Virus record (IMG/VR): IMGVR_UViG_3300034019_000950
Location: 15,356-79,355 of that record
Direction: 5' to 3' (one strand)
DNA: 64,000 bases
Source of the DNA: a virus
A program made the position numbers and the translations under genes. Shown in pieces: positions 10-17,552 of this stretch. Position 1 is the first letter of the stretch, and each line of letters begins with the position of its first letter. The notes below the pieces were generated by a model. The model made no database searches. It was not told where the DNA came from and saw only the letters and a list, made by a program, of their open reading frames with translations.

Positions 10-1512
10 TCAGCAGCTGACGTGCAGCAGGTGTGCACGGTAAGGCGTACCGTCCACGAGCCTCCAGCCGGGCCGCCTTCCAAAACGACCAGCCGCGCAG
101 GCGCTGGCGTCGGCGTGGCCGCCCTGTGCGCCATGCGCGCGCGCCGCAACGAGCACCCGCGCGCCCAGCGCAGCGTGCCACGCGCGCACCGCAGGCTGCT
201 GGTGCCACGTGGCCGCGCTGTGACGCGCATAGCGAAGCTCAACCCACACTTGCAGCCCGACAGGGCCAGTGCGGACAACCGCACACCTGCCGCTTGCCTC
301 TCCATCCATCACCACTGACGCTGCCAGTGCTTCCGCAAGCCCTGTAACGTCGTCTGGCAGCACAATATCGTCAATGTCAACCAACACCCAGTCCTGGCAT
401 CGCGGCGCTTGCGGAGTATTCCAACCGCCATGAGGCGCGCGGCCCATTGTGGAGACGCTAAGCAGACGATCTGGCAATACAGCACGAGCTGGCAGACCAT
501 CACCGAACACCGCAGCATCATGGGCGCGCTGTGCGGCTGCCGGCGTCCGGCTAAGCCTCTCCGCACGCTGCAAGGCCACCAAAACGCCGCCCGTGGCCCG
601 ATTGCCGGGTGTTCGCCATGTAGTCGCACGGCCAGAGGCCGATATAGAGGCACGCAGCAGCGCGATGGTGTGCCCGCTGCGCACAGGGCCGCTCAACACA
701 CACCCCCCAACAGGGGCGCTGTAGCCCGTAAGGGGGGCCGGGCCACCCGTGGCAGAGGCAGCGGCCCGCGCAGGGCCGGGGGCCAGTATGGGGGGGCTTT
801 TATTGTGCCGGTAAGGTTGCGATGCCGTGCTGGTGCGGCTTGCAGGCAACAGGCGCACCTTATGTCCGGCGGCCAGCCACGCCCAACGGGGCGCGGTTCC
901 ATCGACTTGCTCACATGCCATGCACATCGCCCCACCATTCGCCCAAAGCACAAGTGACGGCGTGTTGTCGTCGTGCAGGGGGCAACGTATGGTCGCGGTG
1001 CGTGACCCGGCCCGTAGACGAGCCAGCGCATCTGCTGCTTCTACTTCCAAGTCGGCAGACTGGCATACGCTGGCGCCAGACGCTGCTCGAAGTCCGGCAA
1101 TCTGCCATCCTTCCAGCACAATATGCCGACCGTATCGGCTTCCCCACCGGATGCGTCGTAACTGCGCGCCAAGGACGCGCGCGTGCTCCGTTGCGACCTC
1201 TGCCCATCCGACCAAGTGTTGAGCGAAACGCCATGCCAGCGTCGCGGCCCAGCGGGTACAGCCCTCAACCGTTGCCACGTAGCTTGGACAACTTTCTACA
1301 TACCACCTACCACACGGAAGGCGCTGCGCTTGACGCAGCTGAACAGACCAGCCGTACATCGCGGCCCGTAGACCGACGCCAAGCGCACCCACACTTGATG
1401 CTGCAGCGCGAAGTGCCGCTTCCAAGCGACGACCCGCCAGTGCAGCAGGATCAACCGGCAATGCAAGACTCGACACCACACTTGCTGTGTGATAGGGTTT
1501 GGCTGTCGCCAT
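10..1512 (-). CDS. CHC2-type zinc finger plus AEP/RepB-like primase domain protein
   Basis: CPLHDDNTPS...CMAC zinc finger; C-terminal VLVDIDD, VVRTGPVGLQVW and GRFGRRPG motifs resemble prim-pol/RepB primase motifs. Confidence 0.6.
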   Translation of the reverse strand: MATAKPYHTASVVSSLALPVDPAALAGRRLEAALRAAASSVGALGVGLRAAMYGWSVQLRQAQRLPCGRWYVESCPSYVATVEGCTRWAATLAWRFAQHLVGWAEVATEHARVLGAQLRRIRWGSRYGRHIVLEGWQIAGLRAASGASVCQSADLEVEAADALARLRAGSRTATIRCPLHDDNTPSLVLWANGGAMCMACEQVDGTAPRWAWLAAGHKVRLLPASRTSTASQPYRHNKSPPILAPGPARAAASATGGPAPLTGYSAPVGGCVLSGPVRSGHTIALLRASISASGRATTWRTPGNRATGGVLVALQRAERLSRTPAAAQRAHDAAVFGDGLPARAVLPDRLLSVSTMGRAPHGGWNTPQAPRCQDWVLVDIDDIVLPDDVTGLAEALAASVVMDGEASGRCAVVRTGPVGLQVWVELRYARHSAATWHQQPAVRAWHAALGARVLVAARAHGAQGGHADASACAAGRFGRRPGWRLVDGTPYRAHLLHVSC

Positions 1513-7271: not shown

Positions 7272-9303
7272 CGAAGTAAAGGGCGCGGCCACCGTGGCGC
7301 AGGCGGCTCAGGCCATCAATCTACGTGTGACACGTGGTTCTGGCTTGACGCCTTGCCCGTCGTGCAAGGCCGAGCAGCGTGGCACCGATGACCGGCGCGG
7401 CCCGCTTGGAGCGCGCACGGACGGCCAAGGCTGGCGGTGCTTCCGGTGCGATGCGTCGGGCGACGTGCCCGACCTGCTGGCGCTGGGCTGGCTGGGCGGG
7501 CGGCTGCGTGAGCTGTCGCCCGAGCAGCGCACGCAGCTACGTGAGCGGTGCGCGGCGCAGGGCTGGTGCACCACCGACGACGCGGGGCGCACCACAGCCG
7601 CTAAGGGCGCGCCTGCGGTGCGTAGGCTGCCCACACCGGCACCGGCTACACCGGCCGCCGCTGGCGCGCCGGGGCCTGTTACGGGGCCTGCCGGGGTTGT
7701 GGCACCCACCCCGCAACAGGGCGGCCCGTTTGGATGGAGGACAGACCTACCAGCCGAGTGTGAGGCGGCGCTATGGGCAGACGAGGGTGCACAGGTGCTC
7801 GCCTACCTGCAGGGGCGCGGGTTTAGTGACGAGACACTGAAACACTGGCGCGTTGGTGCACACTTTTTGCGCGCAGCAGACGGTCGAGTGTTGGAGCAGT
7901 ACGTGGCGCTGCCGGTGCTGGATGCACAAGGCCAGCCGATGAACATGCGCTTCCGTAGCGTTCCAGGCACATGCCTGCGGTGCGGCGGCGCTGGGTGTGA
8001 TCGCTGCAAGGCCGGGCAGGTGAAAAAGATATACCTACGATGCCCAGGCGCCACGAGCACACTGTTTGGCATTCATCAACTTGATGGTGATCCAAACAGT
8101 GAAGTGATCGTAACCGAGGGTGAGCTGGACGTGCTCGCACTTTGGCAGTACGGGCTGCGGTCCAACGTGGTCACGGGCACTGCTGGTGCAGGCACGTGGT
8201 TGGACGAATGGCTGGACACATTGGAGCCTTACCGCTCCTTTCTACTGGCATACGATGCTGATGATGCAGGCGAGCAGGGCGCCCTGGCACTTGCCGCTAA
8301 GCTTGGCAGGGAAAGGTGTAGTCGCGTCAAGTTACCGGCAAAGGATGCCGCCGACTGCCTTGCAGCGTGCGTTGGTCAGCGGACGGTCCACGCTGCGCTT
8401 GATGCCGCAGCGCCGATGCTGGACGTCAAGCTTGTCCGCGTAGACGCCTACGCCGATGCAATCGAGCAGCTGGTGCAGCGACCGGCTGAGCTGCGAGGGC
8501 TGCCTATTGGAAGCGCCAAGCTGGACGAGGCGCTGGGCGGCTGGCGTCCCGGCCTTGTGGTTGTGACGGGCGACACGGCAGCCGGCAAGACATCGTGGAC
8601 GACGTGGGTGGCGCGCGAGCAGGCACTGCGCGGCGTGCCCGTGATGCTGACCAGCTTCGAACAGCGCCCAATCGGCACGGTGCAGAAGCTGCTGCGCGCA
8701 CAGCTGGGTGGCGACTTTTCACATGCAAGCGAGCACGAACGGCGCGCGGCGATGGCGCAGCTGGGCCAGCTGCCAATCTACGTGCTGGATCACTACGGCG
8801 AGCTTGGTGTGGAGCAAGTGCTGGAGGCTGTCGGCTACGCCGTCCGGCGGCGTGGTGTAAAGATGGCAGTCATTGACCACCTCGGCTTCCTTGTGACAGG
8901 GGCAGAGGATGAGCGCAGGGCCATTGAGGATGCTGTGCGCAAGATGGCTGTGTTTGCGGTGCAAAGGGAAGTGACGCTGGTTCTAATCTGCCACCCCAAC
9001 AACCTGTCAGTGACGCAACAGCGCCGCGTCATGCTCGGTGACCTCAAAGGCGCGAGCGCCATCAGACAGGATGCACACGTAGGCATCGTGGTAGAGCGCA
9101 TTTTGCCAGGACGGGCAGTGCAGCACCCCGCGACGGCGGTTTACGTGGACAAGTGCCGATCAGAGTTCGGTCTACAAGGCGCGCGCGTCGTTCAGTTCTA
9201 TGACCCGGAAAGCTGCGTGTATGCCGACACCTGGGAGGGCACACCAGCCGGCCGTTCTGGGCGTGGCTCCGCGCTCGCAGCACATACTGACCCGAGCGCA
9301 TGA
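7246..9303 (+). CDS. Primase-helicase (zinc finger + TOPRIM + DnaB-like SF4 helicase)
   Basis: CPSC...CFRC; TEGELD and YDADDAG TOPRIM motifs; GDTAAGKT, IDHL, DLKGASAIRQDA. Confidence 0.92.
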   Translation: MEATVGWIDEVKGAATVAQAAQAINLRVTRGSGLTPCPSCKAEQRGTDDRRGPLGARTDGQGWRCFRCDASGDVPDLLALGWLGGRLRELSPEQRTQLRERCAAQGWCTTDDAGRTTAAKGAPAVRRLPTPAPATPAAAGAPGPVTGPAGVVAPTPQQGGPFGWRTDLPAECEAALWADEGAQVLAYLQGRGFSDETLKHWRVGAHFLRAADGRVLEQYVALPVLDAQGQPMNMRFRSVPGTCLRCGGAGCDRCKAGQVKKIYLRCPGATSTLFGIHQLDGDPNSEVIVTEGELDVLALWQYGLRSNVVTGTAGAGTWLDEWLDTLEPYRSFLLAYDADDAGEQGALALAAKLGRERCSRVKLPAKDAADCLAACVGQRTVHAALDAAAPMLDVKLVRVDAYADAIEQLVQRPAELRGLPIGSAKLDEALGGWRPGLVVVTGDTAAGKTSWTTWVAREQALRGVPVMLTSFEQRPIGTVQKLLRAQLGGDFSHASEHERRAAMAQLGQLPIYVLDHYGELGVEQVLEAVGYAVRRRGVKMAVIDHLGFLVTGAEDERRAIEDAVRKMAVFAVQREVTLVLICHPNNLSVTQQRRVMLGDLKGASAIRQDAHVGIVVERILPGRAVQHPATAVYVDKCRSEFGLQGARVVQFYDPESCVYADTWEGTPAGRSGRGSALAAHTDPSA

Positions 9304-9405: not shown

Positions 9406-10149
9406 ATGAGCCGCAAGACCAGCAACATCACTCGCACCCGTGCCGTCGCGTACCTGCGCGTGAGCACAGACAAACAAGCAGATACTGGCGTAAGCCTTGA
9501 CGCACAGCGCGCCAAGGTGCAGCTCTACGCCGATCTCTACGACGTGGAGCTGGTCGAGGTGGTGGTGGACGCGGGCGCAAGCGCCAAGACGCTGGAGCGC
9601 GAGGGCCTGCAGCGCGCGCTGGCCATGCTGGACAGCGGCAAGGCTGACGCCCTGCTGGTGTGCAAGCTGGACCGCCTCACGCGCAGCGTGCGCGACCTGG
9701 GCGCGCTGCTGGACGGCTGGTTCGGGCGCAAGGACGGCCCGGCGCTGCTGTCGGTGCAGGAGCAGGTGGACACCCGCACGGCAGGCGGGCGGCTCGTCCT
9801 CAACGTGCTGATGTCCGTGGCACAGTGGGAGCGTGAAACCATCGGAGAGCGCACCAGCGCGGCGATGGCGCACATGAAGGCAGAGGGTGCGTACACGGGC
9901 GGGCGCGCGCCCTATGGGTGGCAGGCCGACGCCGAGGGGCAGCTGCACCCGGTGCCTGCCGAGCAGGCAGCCATCGTGCTGGCGCAGCAGCTGCACGCCG
10001 AGGGGAACAGCCTGCGCCGGGTGGGCGCGCTGCTGTTGGAAGCGGGACACCTGCCCCGTATCGGTAGTGCATGGCACGCGAGCAGCATCAGGGTTGTTCT
10101 GGCTGCACGGGTCGCAACGGCTACAAGTGTGGATCAGTCGGCTGCGTAA
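9406..10149 (+). CDS. Serine recombinase (resolvase family)
   Basis: YLRVSTDKQ catalytic Ser motif, KLDRLTRS, ERETIGERT, GGRAPYGW. Confidence 0.92.
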   Translation: MSRKTSNITRTRAVAYLRVSTDKQADTGVSLDAQRAKVQLYADLYDVELVEVVVDAGASAKTLEREGLQRALAMLDSGKADALLVCKLDRLTRSVRDLGALLDGWFGRKDGPALLSVQEQVDTRTAGGRLVLNVLMSVAQWERETIGERTSAAMAHMKAEGAYTGGRAPYGWQADAEGQLHPVPAEQAAIVLAQQLHAEGNSLRRVGALLLEAGHLPRIGSAWHASSIRVVLAARVATATSVDQSAA

Positions 10150-10201
10150 GTCACCTGTGCGCGTTGGAAGCAAACGCCCTATGACTTCTGCAGGAGGGCT
10201 G

Positions 10202-11086
10202 ATGCTCGATCTGCGAAACCTACCGACCAGCGCGGTCATGCGACTGGTCCGCGCCACCCCTCGGAGGGATGGCGCCGGCATCGTGTGGGACTACGACCTT
10301 TCTATTGAGGTTCCAGACGAACAGGCGGCTGCATTGGTGGACAGCTACGTGCCCGGTGCTGCACGAGCATTCGCCAGTGGTGGTGATGGTGCGCGTGGCA
10401 AGGCGAGCACAACCGGGGGCTTTGACCTGTGTGCGTTGGAGCTATCCGCAGAGGACGGGCGTCACCTTGCGCGAGGTCATGCCGAGGTGCGGCAGGCTAC
10501 GGTCAGCGTGACGGCATCACAGGCAGTGCTGGTGGTGCGCGTGCGCGTGCACGGACTGTTGGAAAGAGCGGCGACTGATGTTGTGTATCAGCTTGACGAA
10601 GTGCTGCAGGTGTCTTTGACGACACAGCACGCTGCACGACTGACGGTTGCGGAAGCTGTGGGCGCTGGGCAGCGGCCCGCTCAAAGTGTGGGTGGCTTGA
10701 TTGGCAGGCTGGTTGTCGTCCAGCATGGAACAGAGCTGATGGCTGGCATTGTTGTCCATCAGGATGGAACAAGCCTGCATCTTGAGTCATTGGACGAGGG
10801 CGTGTCGCTGGTGGACCTGGGAACCGGAAAGCCGGCAACGGTGTTGGACGTGGTTCCTCCTCCTGGCGAGGCGATGAGCGAGCTTGTGTCGTTCTACTCG
10901 GTCAGCTGTGCTCATGCCGGTGTGCGTGCAAGCTGGCACGACGTAATCACGGCAATCGGCCTGCTGTATGCTGAACAAAAGCTGCAAGCGTTGCCTGACT
11001 ACAGCTGGCAGCTTGACCCCGAGGTCTGGGAAGCTGCACTGGAGCACGCAATCACAAACGCGGGGCCGACAACGGCAGAGGCGTGA
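10202..11086 (+). CDS. Hypothetical protein
   Basis: Long ORF with GGAGG RBS and upstream GTGCG-N18-TATGAC motif. Confidence 0.6.
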   Translation: MLDLRNLPTSAVMRLVRATPRRDGAGIVWDYDLSIEVPDEQAAALVDSYVPGAARAFASGGDGARGKASTTGGFDLCALELSAEDGRHLARGHAEVRQATVSVTASQAVLVVRVRVHGLLERAATDVVYQLDEVLQVSLTTQHAARLTVAEAVGAGQRPAQSVGGLIGRLVVVQHGTELMAGIVVHQDGTSLHLESLDEGVSLVDLGTGKPATVLDVVPPPGEAMSELVSFYSVSCAHAGVRASWHDVITAIGLLYAEQKLQALPDYSWQLDPEVWEAALEHAITNAGPTTAEA

Positions 11087-11666: not shown

Positions 11667-12407
11667 ATGCCGACCACTGAGCTGAACCTGACGACCGTGG
11701 CGCTTTCTGAACTGCGCCCCGACCCTGCCAATCCGCGCACGCACGATGCGCGAAACATCGCGGCCATCGCAGCCAGCCTGCGAGAGCACGGTCAGGTAGA
11801 GCCGCTGCTGGTTCAGCGTTCCACGATGATGGTGATCGGCGGCAACGGACGTGCAGAGGCCATGCGCTCCCTTGGCTGGAAGCAGGCCCGCGTGGCGTTG
11901 CTTGATGTCAGCGACACGGAGGCTCGCAAGCTTTCCATTGCACTGAACCGCACGGGCGAACTGGCCGGATGGGATGAAGCTGTGCTGGCGCGGCACCTTG
12001 CCGACCTGTCGGCGTTGGATGGTTTCGTTGTCGAGGACCTGGGCTTCAACACGGCTGAGCTGGACGCCTTGGTGGCCGCCTATGTTGGTGAAGTCGATCA
12101 GATGCACTTGGAAGAGCCGCCGCCGCGCGACACCAGCAAACTTCCAATCAACCAGCTGACTGCCGCACAGACCGATCAGCCTGCTTCCCCTGTCACGTCG
12201 TCCGTCATGCCCGCTACGCCCGAGCACACCGTTCCTGCGCCGATGCCGACCAGCAGCGTTCGCCTTGTCCAGCTGTTCTTGGATGATGAAACCATCGACG
12301 GCTTTCAGATGGCCGTGCGCAAGCTTGCCGACCAGTACGTGACCGACAACATCACCGACACCGTGCGTCGTGCTGTGCTGACGGCAGCCGGCGATTGGAA
12401 GGACTGA
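11667..12407 (+). CDS. ParB/Srx N-terminal-domain protein
   Basis: LRPDPANPRTH...IAASLREHGQVEPLLV...IGGNGR, typical of phage ParB-like proteins next to DNA-modification genes. Confidence 0.85.
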   Translation: MPTTELNLTTVALSELRPDPANPRTHDARNIAAIAASLREHGQVEPLLVQRSTMMVIGGNGRAEAMRSLGWKQARVALLDVSDTEARKLSIALNRTGELAGWDEAVLARHLADLSALDGFVVEDLGFNTAELDALVAAYVGEVDQMHLEEPPPRDTSKLPINQLTAAQTDQPASPVTSSVMPATPEHTVPAPMPTSSVRLVQLFLDDETIDGFQMAVRKLADQYVTDNITDTVRRAVLTAAGDWKD

Positions 12408-13300
12408 TGCGGGCGGTCCTACGGACCAAGGTGCCTGAGCATGAAGTGGCTGCATGGAAGGGCAGGCACCCGCAGGCAAGCCAGTTCGACATGCTGGTTA
12501 CTGGTGAGTGCGACCTGTATGGGCCGGATGGATCACCTTTGCTGTTTGTCCGACGCGGCAAGCTGAACAGCGAGGCAATAGAACAAGCAAGGCCGACACT
12601 GCACTGGATGCGTCGCTTCACAAGCGACAACCGCGCTGACTACGCTGGCGGCATTGCAGCCAAGGCCGTCAACGCAGATGGCACAGTGGCGAAGCAGAGC
12701 CGGACATACGATGAGCAAGGCAACGTGATGAGTGTGCCGAGCTGCATTGCCGGCTTCTTTGAGCCGCAAGGCGGCCGGCATCCGTTCTGCAGGGCCACAG
12801 CATTCCTGCGCTCCTTCCCTGATCAATGGGCCAGTCTGCAGCCGATGCTTAGGGACGTCGGCGCACTCTATCGACGCACTGTTCCGCTGCGATGGAAGCA
12901 GCAGATGGAAGTGGTGGACAAGTCAGACCCAGCGTGGGTCATTCCTGGCACACCCTTCACTACGATTACCGTCAACAACACAGTGCCGGCTGCCTACCAC
13001 CGAGATGGTGGCGACCTCAAAGAAGGCTTTGGTGTCCTTGTCGTCTTGTCAAAGGGTCAGTTCGACGGATTCGATCTCGTCGTTCCAGAGTACCGTGTGG
13101 CTACCCACCTGCGCGACGGCGACGTTCTGTTCTTTGACCCGACTGTGTGGCATGGCAACACCCTGCCGACCAACATGGTTGGAGAGAAAGACGAGGACTG
13201 GTATCGCATCAGCCTTGTGGCTTACTACCGAGAGGGCATCGTCGGCTGCGGCAGCCCGCAGGCAGAGCTGCAAAAAGCAAAGGCCAGGGGTGCGCTGTGA
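12407..13300 (+). CDS. TET/JBP-family 2OG-Fe(II) dioxygenase
   Basis: PFTTITVN, HRDGGD (HxD), GDVLFFD..WHGNT (distal His), RISLVAYYRE (2OG-binding Arg); TGATG overlap with ParB gene. Confidence 0.88.
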   Translation: MRAVLRTKVPEHEVAAWKGRHPQASQFDMLVTGECDLYGPDGSPLLFVRRGKLNSEAIEQARPTLHWMRRFTSDNRADYAGGIAAKAVNADGTVAKQSRTYDEQGNVMSVPSCIAGFFEPQGGRHPFCRATAFLRSFPDQWASLQPMLRDVGALYRRTVPLRWKQQMEVVDKSDPAWVIPGTPFTTITVNNTVPAAYHRDGGDLKEGFGVLVVLSKGQFDGFDLVVPEYRVATHLRDGDVLFFDPTVWHGNTLPTNMVGEKDEDWYRISLVAYYREGIVGCGSPQAELQKAKARGAL

Positions 13301-13824
13301 AGACCGTGCTTTACGTCGTCGGAGCGCCCGGTGTAGGTAAAAGCACTGCGCTCACCGGACTACTCGACAAGTGGGCCACCGCGCTTGTTCAGTCCCCAAA
13401 GTGGACATTGAGTGCGCCGATTGCTCTCGTTGGTCACTACGTAAAGGGCGGCCATGATGGCGGCGACACCGTTCCCTACGACGGTGCGGCAGAGTGCTTG
13501 ACGTACATGCGCGATGTTCTGTTGCAAGATCACCGCCTGCATGGCTTTGTGCTGGATGGTGACCGCTTTACAACCTCTACCTGCCGTCAGTTCACTGACG
13601 GCCTACCTGGCATCCGTGTTGTGTGTGTTCATCTACAAGCCAGTGACGCAACACTCACAGCCAGACGGACAGCCAGGGGCAGCACGCAGAACCCAACATG
13701 GATGCTCGGCCGCAACACGAAGGCGGCACGGTTTGCTGACAGCTTCCCCGACGCGGTACGGCTGCAGACTGATGAAATGAGGCCGGATGAAGTCACCCAG
13801 GCAATACGGGAACTGTTGCGGTGA
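13297..13824 (+). CDS. P-loop nucleotide/DNA kinase of base-modification type
   Basis: GAPGVGKST, LDGDRF, ARRTARGSTQNPTWMLGRNTK; GTGA overlap with TET gene. Confidence 0.75.
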   Translation: MKTVLYVVGAPGVGKSTALTGLLDKWATALVQSPKWTLSAPIALVGHYVKGGHDGGDTVPYDGAAECLTYMRDVLLQDHRLHGFVLDGDRFTTSTCRQFTDGLPGIRVVCVHLQASDATLTARRTARGSTQNPTWMLGRNTKAARFADSFPDAVRLQTDEMRPDEVTQAIRELLR

Positions 13825-14864
13825 GCGCATCGCCAGTCGCACTTGCAGAGCCAGATCTTGCGAAAGTGAAAGCTTTGCTTCTGGACACGGCATCACCCGT
13901 ACACGGTGATCCATCGTGTGTAGTGGTGTTGTTGTCTGCGAGCCGTAGTGGAAGCAGCACGGTGCATGACCTGCTGGCCCGGTGCGATGCCGTCGCGGCC
14001 TTGCCAGGAGAGATTGAGCCATACCTGCGATTGACTGGTAACGCGCAAGGCGTAGATGGAAGTAACGAGGTCACTTCCTTCACAAACATCGAAGAACTGC
14101 GCGCGCTTGTCCGCACGGATCTGCGCCTATGGTCGCAACCTCTACCGCTGGTTCATGGTTCTGATTGGCATCAGCGTCGCCTGTTGTTTCAGTCTCCTAT
14201 GGGCTTGGAGCTGGACGAAGGCTGGTATGACGGTTGCAGCAGACCGCCCGCTTCCAATCTCACGGTCTTGGAAGAGCCGCCACTGGTTCCAATAGCAGAT
14301 GCGGTGAAGCCGGGTAGCCTAAACGGCGTCAAACTCATACTCAAAACACCACAACTCGTCTATCGACGTGGGCTGGTGGAGGCGCTGTTTCCAAACAGTC
14401 CGGTTCACTACCTACACCTAAGACGCAGCGCGCCGGGGACTGTCAACGGACTGCTTGATGGGTGGCTTGGTCCACACTTTTGGTCATATCGACTACCAGC
14501 GCCTGATGGGGCGGCGATGCCTGACTGGTGGTGCTTTGATGTGCCGCCAGGATGGCACGCGACACGAGGACTGCTTGATGCCTGTGTGCTGCAATGGGTT
14601 GCCGCCAACACGGCTGCGCTTCTGCACCCGCTGGTGGGGCATCTCCACTACGAGGACTTGTGGAGGCCGCAAGCAGAGCAACGAATAGCAGCCGCTTGTG
14701 GGATTGCCGTTGAGGCACGGCTACGTACAGTGATGGCGACAGAACAGCCGGCTGAAAGACGCTGGGCAACCAAGCGGCCAGAACTTGCAGGCTTGATGGA
14801 GAGGAATGACGTTACACAGCTCATGGAGCAGCTGGGTTACGTGAATGGAGGTGTCCAGTGGTAG
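13821..14864 (+). CDS. Sulfotransferase-family protein
   Basis: SASRSGSSTVHDLL (PAPS-binding loop), LKTP, HLRR...NGLLDGW, HYEDL. Confidence 0.75.
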   Translation: MSASPVALAEPDLAKVKALLLDTASPVHGDPSCVVVLLSASRSGSSTVHDLLARCDAVAALPGEIEPYLRLTGNAQGVDGSNEVTSFTNIEELRALVRTDLRLWSQPLPLVHGSDWHQRRLLFQSPMGLELDEGWYDGCSRPPASNLTVLEEPPLVPIADAVKPGSLNGVKLILKTPQLVYRRGLVEALFPNSPVHYLHLRRSAPGTVNGLLDGWLGPHFWSYRLPAPDGAAMPDWWCFDVPPGWHATRGLLDACVLQWVAANTAALLHPLVGHLHYEDLWRPQAEQRIAAACGIAVEARLRTVMATEQPAERRWATKRPELAGLMERNDVTQLMEQLGYVNGGVQW

Positions 14865-15691
14865 GGTTACAGGTCGTCAACCCGGATGGTCGGCTACGTT
14901 CAGTGCTGGTATCCAGTGCTGACAAGCTTGCGGCATCCTTGCCGGCCGCTGTTCCCGCAAGCTGGCTCGCCATGCCAGACGCAAAGGGTCTGATGGCAGA
15001 AGTGGAAGCATTCCACGACTTCTTGCGATCGCGCTTGCAGCTTGTTGTTGTCGACGTGGCCGACGCAACGCTGTTTGATGGCCTGTATGCGCGCGATTAC
15101 GGCGCCGTCGTCAATCAGACGCTGTATCTGATGCGCAGTCCAGTGCCGCATCGTGCGCCAGAACGAGACAGGGTGGCTGACGAGCTGCAAAGGCTTGGAA
15201 TCAAGGCAGTGTGCGCGCCAGATGATGTCTATGGTGAGGGAGCAGACCTGCTTCCGCTTTCGCAGGGCCGATGGGCAATCGCAACCGGACGGCGCACAAC
15301 ACAAGGCATGGCCTTATGGATGCGCTCGCAGCTTCCATCAGATCAAGTCCTCTATCGAACCAAAAAGCGTGGACCTGATGTGCCTCAGCACCTGCTGGGT
15401 GGCAACCGCATCCTCAACGGGGTGCTTTACCACCGCGCAGATGTCGAGCCACTGCCAGGATGGACGGGCGAGTGCGTCAGTCTGAATGTCAATGATGAGG
15501 TTGGCAGCAAGCTCGGCATGAACTGGCTCGTGCTGGACAGGGCGGAAGTCGTGATGGCAGAGGACTGCCCAGGAGTGCGAGCCATGCTGGAGAAAAAAGG
15601 CATCAAAGTTCATGTTCTGCCGATGGCTAACATCAGGGCAATGGGGGGCGGCTTTGCCTGCGCCACGTTGCCGCTGTGGAGAGATCTATGA
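14858..15691 (+). CDS. Amidinotransferase / arginine deiminase (pentein) family enzyme
   Basis: YARD, EGAD, QHL, GMNWL and C-terminal GGGFACAT with the catalytic Cys. Confidence 0.85.
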   Translation: MVGLQVVNPDGRLRSVLVSSADKLAASLPAAVPASWLAMPDAKGLMAEVEAFHDFLRSRLQLVVVDVADATLFDGLYARDYGAVVNQTLYLMRSPVPHRAPERDRVADELQRLGIKAVCAPDDVYGEGADLLPLSQGRWAIATGRRTTQGMALWMRSQLPSDQVLYRTKKRGPDVPQHLLGGNRILNGVLYHRADVEPLPGWTGECVSLNVNDEVGSKLGMNWLVLDRAEVVMAEDCPGVRAMLEKKGIKVHVLPMANIRAMGGGFACATLPLWRDL

Positions 15692-16644
15692 CAGATGCGC
15701 TTGATCCAACGTCATGGCCCTTGTGGTCTGTGTTCATTCGCTTTGCACGTCGTCAGCTGGAAACGCTCGACTACGACCCGTTCCATCCGATGCTGGTGCA
15801 CCTACAGCGCGGCACGAGTGTTGATGAAGGCTTGTGGTCCAGCTTCCTTTACATGGCCTTCTACAACCTGGGATCAGCCTACTGTGCGTGGACAACAACA
15901 CGTCCGATGCAGGCACTTCCAGCAATAGCGGACCGATGGTCTATCGGAACGCAAAGACGCAACCTGCGAGCAAGCAGTGTTTGCAAGCATGTTGAGTCAT
16001 TGGCATCGCAAGCCAGACCGCACGGGAGCCTCTACAGCTTCTTCACACATGACTTCACTGGTAACGAAAAGGCAGATTGGCTAAGCCTTCTGAACAGGCT
16101 GGAAGGCGTGTGGGGTAACGGAAGGTGGGGCGCTTACACGACAGCTGAGCTGCTACAGAAAGTGAACCAGCTACCAGTGCAGCCAGCAACCCTTGGATTG
16201 GAAGGAGCCACAGGCCCACGAAAGGGACTGGTGGTGCTGACGGGCCTATCAGCGGAAACCAGCACGGAGGTCATGCAGGTGTATGGTGACGCGCTACTGG
16301 CCAAGCTACGCAGCCTGTTTCCAAACCCCCGCATCCCCTGGGCAAGACACGGCATTGACTTCGCAATGACCGAAAGCATCCTCTGCGACTTCTACGGCTT
16401 GACCAAGGGTCGCTACTACATCGGGCGGGACATAGACCGTGAGGCAGGACGGATACTGTCTCAAAGTGGTCGAACTGACGTGGATATGGGTCCCTTGTGG
16501 GCCGCACGCGCCACAGTGTTCCCACCTCACCTGCTTGCTGAGCGACGGAGGACCGTGCTGGACATTGATTATGAAAGAGCGCGGGTCTACAAAGAGACTG
16601 GCCTGCTGGCAGACTACCGTGACGACTTCCCTTTGCTGCCATGA
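15688..16644 (+). CDS. Amino-acid:DNA transferase-like protein (aGPT-PPlase2 type)
   Basis: DYDP, GNGRWGAYTTAELL, ESILCDF...GRYYIGRDID resemble the glycosylase-fold thymine-hypermodification transferases; ATGA overlap. Confidence 0.75.
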   Translation: MTDALDPTSWPLWSVFIRFARRQLETLDYDPFHPMLVHLQRGTSVDEGLWSSFLYMAFYNLGSAYCAWTTTRPMQALPAIADRWSIGTQRRNLRASSVCKHVESLASQARPHGSLYSFFTHDFTGNEKADWLSLLNRLEGVWGNGRWGAYTTAELLQKVNQLPVQPATLGLEGATGPRKGLVVLTGLSAETSTEVMQVYGDALLAKLRSLFPNPRIPWARHGIDFAMTESILCDFYGLTKGRYYIGRDIDREAGRILSQSGRTDVDMGPLWAARATVFPPHLLAERRRTVLDIDYERARVYKETGLLADYRDDFPLLP

Positions 16645-16699
16645 GTGATTGTTGCGCATAACTGCCTGCATGTTAGTATGGTGGTGCAAGGGGGCCACC

Positions 16700-17038
16700 A
16701 TGATTGACTACAAACAGGCAGTAAGTGGGGAACAGCGTGCGGCTTGTGCGAGGTTGCAGGCCGACCTGCAGTTAGAGCTGAGCGCACTGCCTAAGCAGGC
16801 AAAGTGGCACGAGCGCATCGCCTACAACAACGCAATCGACTGGCTCGATAGCGTCATTCAACATGGCGCATACGGTTGCCAGCTGTGCTTTACGAAGCAT
16901 CCGGTCGTGTTGCGTCTTGCTGCGCATCATGGAGTGCCGGTAGCGCCCGCCCCGCGTCATGCCACGACTGATGATGTGCGTAGGTTGCGGGAAGGCATCG
17001 CGCTGACAGAAAGGGTGCGTCCTAACCTGCGCGCATAG
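16700..17038 (+). CDS. Hypothetical protein
   Basis: ORF downstream of TTGCGC-N16-TAGTAT promoter-like site. Confidence 0.55.
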   Translation: MIDYKQAVSGEQRAACARLQADLQLELSALPKQAKWHERIAYNNAIDWLDSVIQHGAYGCQLCFTKHPVVLRLAAHHGVPVAPAPRHATTDDVRRLREGIALTERVRPNLRA

Positions 17039-17100: not shown

Positions 17101-17204
17101 CGCGCCAGCACTGGCAACGCATGGCCGGTGCGTGCACAGGGCTAACACCCTACAATATAACGGCAGCGCAACACGGTACAGCAAACAGTAAGGCAGATCA
17201 AAAC

Positions 17205-17552
17205 ATGACTATCTGGACAATACGGGAAGCTGGCGATAACAAAAGCGTGGGGGCTGACGGGCAGGTGGTGTTCGACCCCAGCTTTTCGCCTAACTGGCTG
17301 CAGATGCCCGATGACCTCGGCGGACAGCAGCATCGTGTCGCTGGCAGCTGCTGGATGTCGTGCGCGCCCAACCCGGAAAGAGATCTGAATGACCAGTCAA
17401 CGTGGTGGCTGGAGCAGAAAACACGCTGGCACGTTCTGGCTGACTCGCCGATGGTCGTGGCCGAGGTGGTGGGCAAGGGCTGGGTTGTGATTGAGCCTGG
17501 ACCGGAGGCGCGCTCGTTCCTTATGAGGCTCGCCAAGCTGGAAAAGCTCTAA
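17205..17552 (+). CDS. Hypothetical protein
   Basis: ORF downstream of GTGCG-N18-TACAAT motif. Confidence 0.55.
   Translation: MTIWTIREAGDNKSVGADGQVVFDPSFSPNWLQMPDDLGGQQHRVAGSCWMSCAPNPERDLNDQSTWWLEQKTRWHVLADSPMVVAEVVGKGWVVIEPGPEARSFLMRLAKLEKL

Follow-up and report, generated by a model that had tools for sequence, protein, structure and literature searches.

What a sulfotransferase might contribute to the remodelling of thymine in DNA is the question raised by a six-gene operon of a complete, uncultured phage genome of 79 kb, from which we analysed a stretch of 64,000 nucleotides (hereafter, the window; IMG/VR record IMGVR_UViG_3300034019_000950). The operon encodes, in order, a ParB-like protein, a TET/JBP dioxygenase, a P-loop kinase, the sulfotransferase, a pentein and an amino acid:DNA transferase (Table 1). 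All six genes point in one direction, with ends that overlap or abut, and a search inside the operon turned up neither promoter-like sites nor terminator-like sites on the + strand. The sulfotransferase is overlapped on both sides: its start shares the sequence GTGA with the stop of the kinase open reading frame (ORF), and its stop overlaps by 7 nt the GTG start of the pentein gene, which is preceded by GGAGG. A literature search found no paper linking a sulfotransferase to phage DNA hypermodification, and to our knowledge no natural DNA base that carries sulfate or sulfamate has been described.

Table 1 Genes of the operon (nucleotide positions in the window) and key residues of the 347-amino-acid sulfotransferase
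Feature	Position	Strand	Basis
ParB-like activator of thymine dioxygenase	11667..12407	+	PF02195 ParB_N 4e-7; phrog_620 8e-38
TET/JBP-family 5-methylpyrimidine dioxygenase, predicted T to 5hmU in finished DNA	12395..13300	+	PF12851 8e-25
Small P-loop kinase, candidate 5hmU DNA kinase	13147..13824 (ORF as listed)	+	AAA_33 1.2e-6
Sulfotransferase	13821 (GTG)..14864 (TAG)	+	SASRSGSS loop, family profile, AlphaFold2 model
Pentein, DDAH-like, predicted guanidino-group-modifying	14858..15691	+	PF02274 7.6e-7; family profile
Amino acid:DNA transferase (AADT/ADDT, aGPT-Pplase family)	15676..16644	+	PF18724 1.6e-17; PF18746 1.3e-6
Sulfotransferase key positions	SASRSGSS 5'-PSB loop 39-46; GEIEP 63-67; K175; R202; NGLLDGW 209-215		

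The public gene model of the sulfotransferase is a 300-amino-acid protein that starts at V48, immediately past the SASRSGSS loop. Because homologues at 51–62% identity align through the N terminus and conserve the loop, the 347-amino-acid form is the correct one.

Queried singly, this protein has no match in Pfam (E ≤ 0.01) or PHROGs and only a weak one to Pfam Sulfotransfer_3, whose 27-bit cut-off it misses (E = 0.04, 14.6 bits); a PDB match to TnsC was dismissed as chance P-loop similarity. As single-sequence searches proved uninformative, the identification relies on profiles and a fold model. PF13469 is matched by 10 of 13 homologues (E ≤ 0.1, best 9.5e-11), several relatives exceed its cut-off, and a profile of 37 family members finds the sulfotransferase domains of OLS (3.3e-11) and CurM (9.5e-11). 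The AlphaFold2 model (pLDDT 87.2, pTM 0.89) gave sulfotransferases for all of its best 50 VIA-align structural matches (Z 8.7–13.8, 180–249 residues aligned); the top Foldseek matches were CurM, OLS, 3-OST, Stf1 and TPST, and the ESM Atlas neighbours are sulfotransferase clusters. The ORF at 13,821–14,864 is therefore a real sulfotransferase-fold protein. A sequence-only reading of the locus had proposed a sulfotransferase with an RSGSS loop between the kinase and an amidinotransferase, and the loop at residues 39–46, the family profile and the fold model confirm it.

Cofactor-binding motifs and candidate catalytic residues of the fold can be recognized. The SASRSGSS loop aligns to SSPRSGST in CurM and OLS, and the pattern SR(S/G/N/A)GS(S/T) is kept in nearly all members, with variants such as SRGGSS and SRNGSS. 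Among the 37 members, R42, G44 and S45 are conserved at 90% or more, and K175 (in LKTPQ) and R202 are invariant, the former aligned to the DKSP lysine of CurM and the latter to the 3'-phosphate-binding arginine of CurM and OLS; Q258/W259 and the E278 region also align to these two enzymes. E64, 22 residues past the loop arginine, is conserved at 90% or more. The spacing of G63-E64 is similar to that of the catalytic glutamate of CurM and TPST, which we take to lie at +21 from the loop arginine; the HMM alignments end before E64. The acidic residues E151, D213 and D240 are conserved as well. The protein would represent a distinct Sulfotransfer_3-like subfamily, with at least 402 clusters at 50% identity in the family, and PAPS-dependent activity is predicted for it.

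One departure concerns the 3'-phosphate-binding motif, in which the position 8 residues past R202 is an invariant Gly, not the expected Ser, and position +7 is an invariant Asn. This Asn-Gly pair (N209/G210), together with the score of the window protein alone, which is below the Pfam threshold, might indicate that the fold has been kept for something other than PAPS-dependent sulfate transfer, such as use of another donor, nucleotide-binding regulation or conversion of a 5-phosphomethyl group to a phosphosulfate. We consider this very improbable, given the conservation of the loop Arg, the Gly-Glu pair, K175 and R202 over 37 diverse members and the PAPS-synthesis genes that adjoin bacterial members.

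In sequence as in structure, the top matches are the domains of CurM and OLS (PDB 4gbm and 4gox; profile about 1e-11, Z 13.3 and 12.7), which share with the window protein the SxRSGS form of the PSB loop, the KxP lysine and the 3'-PB arginine. Both are polyketide-synthase (PKS) domains whose substrates are beta-hydroxyacyl chains bound to ACP and which are accompanied by a thioesterase. The window protein, in contrast, is free-standing, has neither ACP nor thioesterase, lies immediately between a kinase and a pentein, and belongs to a family with motifs of its own (IEEPPF, NGLxDGW and WWxFDxPP). It is not embedded in a PKS module, and the match is one of fold homology only.

The surrounding genes define the pathway. 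A source of 5hmU is present in the operon (ParB_N and Tet_JBP), and neither a C5-methyltransferase nor a thymidylate-synthase-like gene was found in the phage record; because the former is lacking, 5hmU would be made from T after replication. The AADT scores 64.4 bits on PF18724 against a cut-off of 26.2 and has homologues of ~33% identity in Gordonia, Mycobacterium, Microbacterium and Rhodococcus phages. The window kinase falls slightly below the Ploopntkinase3 cut-off of 27 (26.4 bits, 5.8e-6), which is reached by its orthologue in locus L001, where the neighbouring genes are in frame; the real start of the window kinase may lie near 13,300. This kinase was also considered as an APS kinase supplying PAPS, a role rejected on finding no match to PF01583 in the phage record.

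Tailoring of the modified bases of phages M6, ViI, PaMx11, SP10 and PhiW-14 is reportedly carried out by PLP decarboxylases, radical-SAM isomerases, flavin lyases and acetyltransferases. The operon shares the underlying logic of these pathways, in which a kinase acts on 5hmU, an amino acid displaces the product (AADT/aGPT-Pplase) and tailoring follows on DNA (Lee et al. 2018, PMC5889632; Lee et al. 2021, PMC8989533); the latter paper makes no mention of arginine, guanidin-, deiminase, amidino- or sulfat-. ParB-dependent T-dioxygenase pairs (5mYOX clade C1) occur in phage clusters described by O'Toole et al. (PNAS 2026, PMC13229309), which resemble the window in running from a ParB-like gene through a TET/JBP dioxygenase and a P-loop kinase to an AADT, and in lacking a C5-methyltransferase. 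In the main text of that paper, the genes named as linked are glutamine amidotransferases, kinases and AADTs, and neither a sulfotransferase nor a pentein is mentioned there. The sulfotransferase belongs to a DNA thymine-hypermodification operon, as had been proposed from the sequence.

Of the neighbours proposed at the same time, the kinase and the transferase stand, but the adjoining gene called an amidinotransferase is closest in profile to DDAH-type hydrolases. Over its full length, the pentein family profile matches bacterial DDAH (3.9e-34); its matches to arginine deiminase (2e-23) and amidinotransferases (about 1e-12) are weaker. Cys268 and His178 are conserved. Judged by its sequence, the protein is better described as a putative DDAH-like guanidino hydrolase. 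It keeps the Cys, His and acidic catalytic positions of bacterial DDAH (NG,NG-dimethylarginine dimethylaminohydrolase; PDB 1h70, 3rhy), but differs in its low identity and in being always paired or fused with a sulfotransferase.

This coupling extends well beyond the window. Sulfotransferase and pentein genes adjoin in 16 of 19 viral loci (window included), and every recovered viral pentein of this family has a sulfotransferase beside it. The 19 loci represent three unrelated gene contexts (TET/ParB, HMUDK/AADT and TS-like), often with overlapping reading frames, and genes for 5-hydroxymethylpyrimidines (TET, TS-like hydroxymethylases, HMUDK or AADT) adjoin all 18 viral homologue loci. L001 shares the operon order of the window and L067 keeps the TET–kinase–sulfotransferase segment (identity 54–59%). 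In L016, the AADT and the sulfotransferase are two distinct ORFs, read in different frames and overlapping by 35 nt. A metagenome scan for close relatives returned two loci, one of 1.6 kb, and the sulfotransferase is encoded in none of 50,697 GenBank phage records. Two records, L003 (65% complete) and L013 (87% complete), have a sulfotransferase and an AADT but no pentein, and an AADT is not recognizable at ten group C viral loci that have both sulfotransferase and pentein. Since loci without each exist, the sulfotransferase is not strictly dependent on either.

A natural fusion also occurs: a metagenomic protein of 766 amino acids joins a sulfotransferase (residues 14–441) to a pentein (481–762; pentein E = 3e-79). 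In cellular-genome assemblies, the two genes adjoin in 9 loci, from Myxococcota, Bdellovibrionota, Gammaproteobacteria, Saccharibacteria and one Thermoplasmatales metagenome-assembled genome (MAG). One sulfotransferase clade, with members in Oxalobacteraceae and further Betaproteobacteria, falls in the tree among the phage enzymes of group C (support 100/100); in this clade, an arginase-family gene takes the place of the pentein, in an operon of methyltransferase, sulfotransferase, arginase and FAD enzyme. This replacement points to a substrate that bears a guanidino group.

Because the pentein is the tightest partner and an arginase can replace it, we favour a role in which the enzyme sulfates an arginine-derived group, either on the thymine adduct or on its precursor. 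Put in full, an active PAPS-dependent sulfotransferase would form a unit with the DDAH-like pentein and tailor an arginine-derived thymine adduct or its precursor, a reading to which we assign a probability of about 0.5. Thymine in finished DNA would be converted to 5hmU by ParB and TET, and the 5hmU phosphorylated by the kinase. The AADT would then exchange the phosphate for an amino acid, at a guess arginine or a different compound with a guanidino or amino group, and the sulfotransferase–pentein pair would tailor the arginine-derived group, either on DNA or free before transfer. The fold, the membership in the operon and the coupling to the pentein are shown by the data, whereas the acceptor, the order of these steps and the placing of the product on DNA are inferred. 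In the mature base, a remodelled side chain of guanidino, ureido or amino type would then bear a sulfate or sulfamate, and the DNA of this phage may carry an undescribed sulfated base.

Sulfation of the adduct had been one of two roles proposed from the sequence, and it fits the data. The other was that the enzyme makes 5-sulfooxymethyl-dU in place of the phosphorylated intermediate. In a broader form of this proposal, 5hmU in DNA would be sulfated to 5-sulfooxymethyl-U, and a nucleophile would displace the sulfate, in parallel to the phosphate route or replacing it; the nucleophile could be the amino acid delivered by the AADT, or the guanidine of arginine with subsequent DDAH-like cleavage. 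Benzylic-type sulfate esters are established to be good electrophiles, and the closest solved homologues, CurM and OLS, put on sulfate as a leaving group. Moreover, 5-hydroxymethylpyrimidine is the sole substrate source common to all viral contexts. An AADT is not recognizable at the group C loci or in the six group C records searched whole, all of them fragments of 10–70% completeness; L016 has an AADT, sulfotransferase and pentein but none of three tested 5hmU-kinase families; and two viral records, as noted above, pair the sulfotransferase with a transferase in the absence of a pentein.

Activation of 5hmU by sulfate nevertheless seems unlikely to us, because all viral records examined but one, an incomplete jumbo-phage record, contain a small kinase candidate. 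In the window, L001, L067, L003 and each of the ten group C loci, this candidate is the gene immediately upstream of the sulfotransferase; for L010–L013 and L017, it is found elsewhere in the record. That the three upstream kinase families are one was rejected: hhalign joins them through the P-loop only, and they are therefore analogous rather than orthologous; the group C kinase has only a weak thymidylate-kinase P-loop match in Pfam. In addition, the partner to which fusion and conserved pairing link the sulfotransferase is a guanidino hydrolase and not the transferase, homologues 44–50% identical to the group C enzymes reside in cellular operons with no detected DNA-modification genes, and the window enzyme is acidic (net charge about -7). 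The near-universal kinase candidates, the pentein as the most constant partner and the arginase swap all disfavour a 5-sulfooxymethyl-dU route that supplants phosphorylation.

The cellular relatives also raise the possibility that the pair acts outside DNA, on a free arginine-derived metabolite or another macromolecule, and merely shares an early-expressed operon with the thymine-modifying enzymes. In these genomes, the pair lies in clusters of a small-molecule type, whose other members include methyltransferases, B12-radical-SAM enzymes, a di-iron protein and genes for PAPS synthesis, and in which no DNA enzymes were detected. Four cellular-genome loci combine the sulfotransferase family and a pentein with a CysN-family gene for PAPS synthesis; one of them, L050, has a CysN–CysC fusion (APS-kinase domain 1e-64) adjoining CysD, and three of the four encode a further, canonical sulfotransferase. 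None of these four loci showed genes for DNA modification. Phage sulfotransferases and most penteins are acidic, including both enzymes of the window, which suits a target other than DNA; net charge does not separate phage from bacterial members and gives no sign of DNA binding. However, in 19 of 19 viral loci the sulfotransferase gene sits within a set of 5hmU-pathway genes or directly abuts one, in three unrelated contexts; recruitment this often would be difficult to account for if the enzyme played no part in the pathway. We regard a target outside DNA as improbable for the phage enzymes, and tailoring of the thymine adduct or its precursor as the preferred reading.

If that reading is true, a sulfate on a thymine adduct would constitute a new chemical class among phage anti-restriction modifications and a new enzymatic handle for DNA labelling. 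A further conjecture, to which we give very little weight, treats the sulfotransferase and guanidino hydrolase as a general device for turning a hydroxyl into an amine, on DNA in phages and on small molecules in bacterial clusters. The sulfotransferase would make the sulfate ester of the 5-hydroxymethyl group, the guanidine of arginine would displace the sulfate, and the DDAH-like enzyme would release citrulline, leaving 5-aminomethyl-uracil or a further sulfated derivative in DNA; in Oxalobacteraceae, the arginase-family enzyme would serve as the substitute. The question of DNA aside, the paired or fused sulfotransferase and guanidino hydrolase form an uncharacterized two-enzyme module that spans phages, bacteria and one archaeal MAG, and it lends itself to direct testing in those bacterial clusters that have a PAPS supply of their own.

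On family evidence, from sequence profiles and a predicted structure, the 347-amino-acid product of the ORF under study, with the motif SASRSGSS at residues 39–46, clearly belongs to the sulfotransferases. As a single sequence it matched Pfam Sulfotransfer_3 marginally (E=0.04), with no match in PHROGs and no usable one in the PDB. Among 5.8 billion clusters we found 13 homologues, of which 10 match PF13469 (best, 9.5e-11), and a 37-member profile matched the sulfotransferase domain of OLS (3.3e-11) and CurM (9.5e-11), in alignments that include the PSB loop, K175 (the KxP lysine), R202 (the arginine for the 3′-phosphate) and the Q/W...E region. AlphaFold2 predicts the fold with confidence (pLDDT 87.2, pTM 0.89), and each of the 50 structures that match the model best is a sulfotransferase (Z of 13.8 for Stf9, 13.3 for CurM, 12.7 for OLS and 12.6 for TPST); Foldseek also ranked sulfotransferases first, and neighbours in the ESM Atlas are sulfotransferase clusters. 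The loop, profile matches and structural matches bear out the call made in the sequence-only reading. In 1.84 billion 50%-identity clusters, the subfamily has 402 representatives at E<=1e-30 and 1,027 at E<=1e-10. The public gene model (P0002, 300 amino acids) begins only at V48, just past the RSGSS loop, and hence leaves out the cofactor-binding motif. Because the N terminus of the 347-residue form is kept in homologues at 51–62% identity, we consider the longer form correct.

The source virus record (79,355 bp in IMG/VR; 100% complete by CheckV) encodes terminase, portal, capsid and tape-measure proteins on its minus strand, and on its plus strand it has six head-to-tail genes, from a ParB-like protein to an amino-acid:DNA transferase. 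The sulfotransferase start and kinase stop overlap as GTGA, the sulfotransferase stop overlaps the GTG start of the pentein (a guanidino-group-modifying enzyme), GGAGG lies ahead of that GTG, and a site search found no promoter-like or plus-strand terminator-like site inside the block. The listed kinase ORF shares about 150 nt with the 3′ end of the dioxygenase gene, a region that also aligns in the related viral locus L067; the P-loop lies about 57–67 residues into this ORF, and the true kinase start may lie near 13300. Three ORFs flanking the operon have no Pfam match, and those of 399 and 129 amino acids have none in a PHROGs scan either.

Coordinates of the operon and of related features (window positions unless a locus is named)
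Feature	Position	Strand
ParB-like	11667-12407	+
TET/JBP dioxygenase	12395-13300	+
Small P-loop kinase (ORF as listed)	13147-13824	+
Kinase/dioxygenase overlap	13147-13300	
Sulfotransferase ORF	13821-14864	+
Part left out of P0002	13821-13961	
Pentein	14858-15691	+
Amino-acid:DNA transferase	15676-16644	+
Flanking ORF (399 aa)	9887-11086	
Flanking ORF (129 aa)	16649-17038	
Flanking ORF (143 aa)	17121-17552	
Homing-endonuclease-like genes	L004:6544-7404, 10088-10822	
Homing-endonuclease-like genes	L006:3632-4435, 8504-9229	
Arginase-linked cellular operon	L041:7238-10096	
Cellular sulfotransferase–pentein cluster	L050:3928-13894	

The main text of PMC13229309 describes ParB/TET-type pairs that make 5-hydroxymethyluracil (5hmU) from thymine after replication. 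Because neither a C5-cytosine methyltransferase nor a thymidylate-synthase-like gene was found in the phage record, the pair encoded here should, by analogy, do the same. Neither PMC13229309 nor PMC8989533 mentions sulfotransferases, arginine or guanidino enzymes in its main text, and full-text literature searches returned no paper combining a sulfotransferase with DNA hypermodification (including aGPT-Pplase and JBP/hydroxymethyluracil).

The pentein had been read from sequence as an amidinotransferase, but its family profile fits another assignment better: it matches bacterial dimethylarginine dimethylaminohydrolase over the full length (3.9e-34), arginine deiminases at about 1e-23 and true amidinotransferases only at about 1e-12. 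Given this best match, and since the family keeps Cys268 and His178 of the catalytic site, along with several acidic and arginine residues, without exception, the pentein most likely hydrolyses a substituted guanidino group.

Relatives of the sulfotransferase are encoded at 18 IMG/VR loci which, with the window included, fall into three contexts. In context A, L001 has the six-gene order of the window, their sulfotransferases being sisters in a maximum-likelihood tree (98/83), and L067, a 1.6-kb fragment, carries TET–kinase–sulfotransferase at 54–59% identity. Context B (L003, L010–L013, L016 and L017) places the sulfotransferase beside the amino-acid:DNA transferase, with HMUDK-family kinases in L003 and L010–L013, TET and a Ploopntkinase3 kinase in L017, and a pentein alongside in L010, L012, L016 and L017; in L003 and L013, whose records are 65% and 87% complete, sulfotransferase and transferase occur with no pentein in the record. 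Context C (L002, L004–L009, L014, L015 and L057) runs from small P-loop kinase through sulfotransferase to pentein; the flanking genes are an APH-family kinase and divergent thymidylate-synthase-like paralogues, one to three per locus. No amino-acid:DNA transferase was recognized in the context C loci or in the six of their records searched whole, all fragments. In some of these loci the modification cluster is bordered or interrupted by homing-endonuclease-like genes that combine NUMOD3 with TnsA-like or GIY-YIG domains. Every recovered viral pentein of this family adjoins a sulfotransferase; neither is encoded in any of 50,697 GenBank phage records. Actinophages carry relatives of the transferase at about 33% identity.

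Scanning one genome per prokaryotic species yielded 35 cellular loci. At 26, mostly from Oxalobacteraceae, a chromosomal operon encodes a SAM methyltransferase, the sulfotransferase, an enzyme of the arginase family and one that binds FAD/NAD(P), with neither a pentein nor a DNA-modification gene detected; the arginase-linked betaproteobacterial sulfotransferases nest among those of context C (100/100 in the tree). In L023–L047, from Oxalobacteraceae and other Betaproteobacteria, the methyltransferase is MTS-type and the FAD/NAD(P) enzyme is NAD_binding_9. The sulfotransferase is directly followed by a pentein in Myxococcota, Bdellovibrionota, Gammaproteobacteria, Saccharibacteria and a Thermoplasmatales MAG, and a 766-residue metagenomic protein (P0066) naturally fuses a complete sulfotransferase (14–441) to a complete pentein (481–762; E=3e-79). 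Another database protein (P0163, 873 amino acids) has an unexplained 458-residue N-terminal extension ahead of its sulfotransferase domain.

Its adjacency to the pentein, conserved in phages, bacteria and an archaeal MAG, the gene fusion, and the swapping of the pentein for an unrelated arginase-family guanidino hydrolase (counted as three independent lines) link the sulfotransferase to an enzyme that cleaves guanidino groups and not to 5hmU itself. We therefore predict, with a probability of roughly 0.5, that it would sulfate an arginine-derived group, which the pathway would attach to thymine, before or after transfer to DNA. The sulfated atom could belong to a hydroxyl or be a nitrogen, and either enzyme of the pair may act first. 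Adduct sulfation, one of two roles first proposed, fits this coupling. The other, sulfation of 5hmU to a 5-sulfooxymethyl leaving group, now seems unlikely: apart from L016, whose incomplete record has none of three tested 5hmU-kinase families, a kinase candidate is always present, usually directly upstream of the sulfotransferase, and relatives 44–50% identical to context C enzymes occur where no DNA-modification genes were detected, although every viral context has a source of hydroxymethylpyrimidine, context C has no recognizable transferase, and the nearest solved relatives, CurM and OLS, are activating sulfotransferases that install sulfate as a leaving group. A role unrelated to DNA, also improbable, would not readily explain why the gene was taken up in three different settings of 5hmU genes.

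The phage record encodes no APS kinase. At position +8 from R202, where the canonical motif expects Ser, the family has an invariant Gly after an invariant Asn, and this altered 3′-phosphate motif is the only hint of a non-PAPS activity, which we consider very unlikely. PAPS as the probable donor is best supported by genes that lie beside cellular relatives. L050, L053 and L054 share a short upstream gene (a di-iron protein in L050), sulfotransferase, pentein, second sulfotransferase and divergent CysN-family gene, and L055 has this set in another order; in L050 the last is a CysN–CysC fusion (APS-kinase domain, 1e-64) beside CysD. With B12-radical-SAM enzymes or extra methyltransferases nearby in L050, L054 and L055, these clusters look like an uncharacterized sulfated-metabolite pathway. 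All four come from Bdellovibrionota and Gammaproteobacteria, and their second sulfotransferase is canonical.
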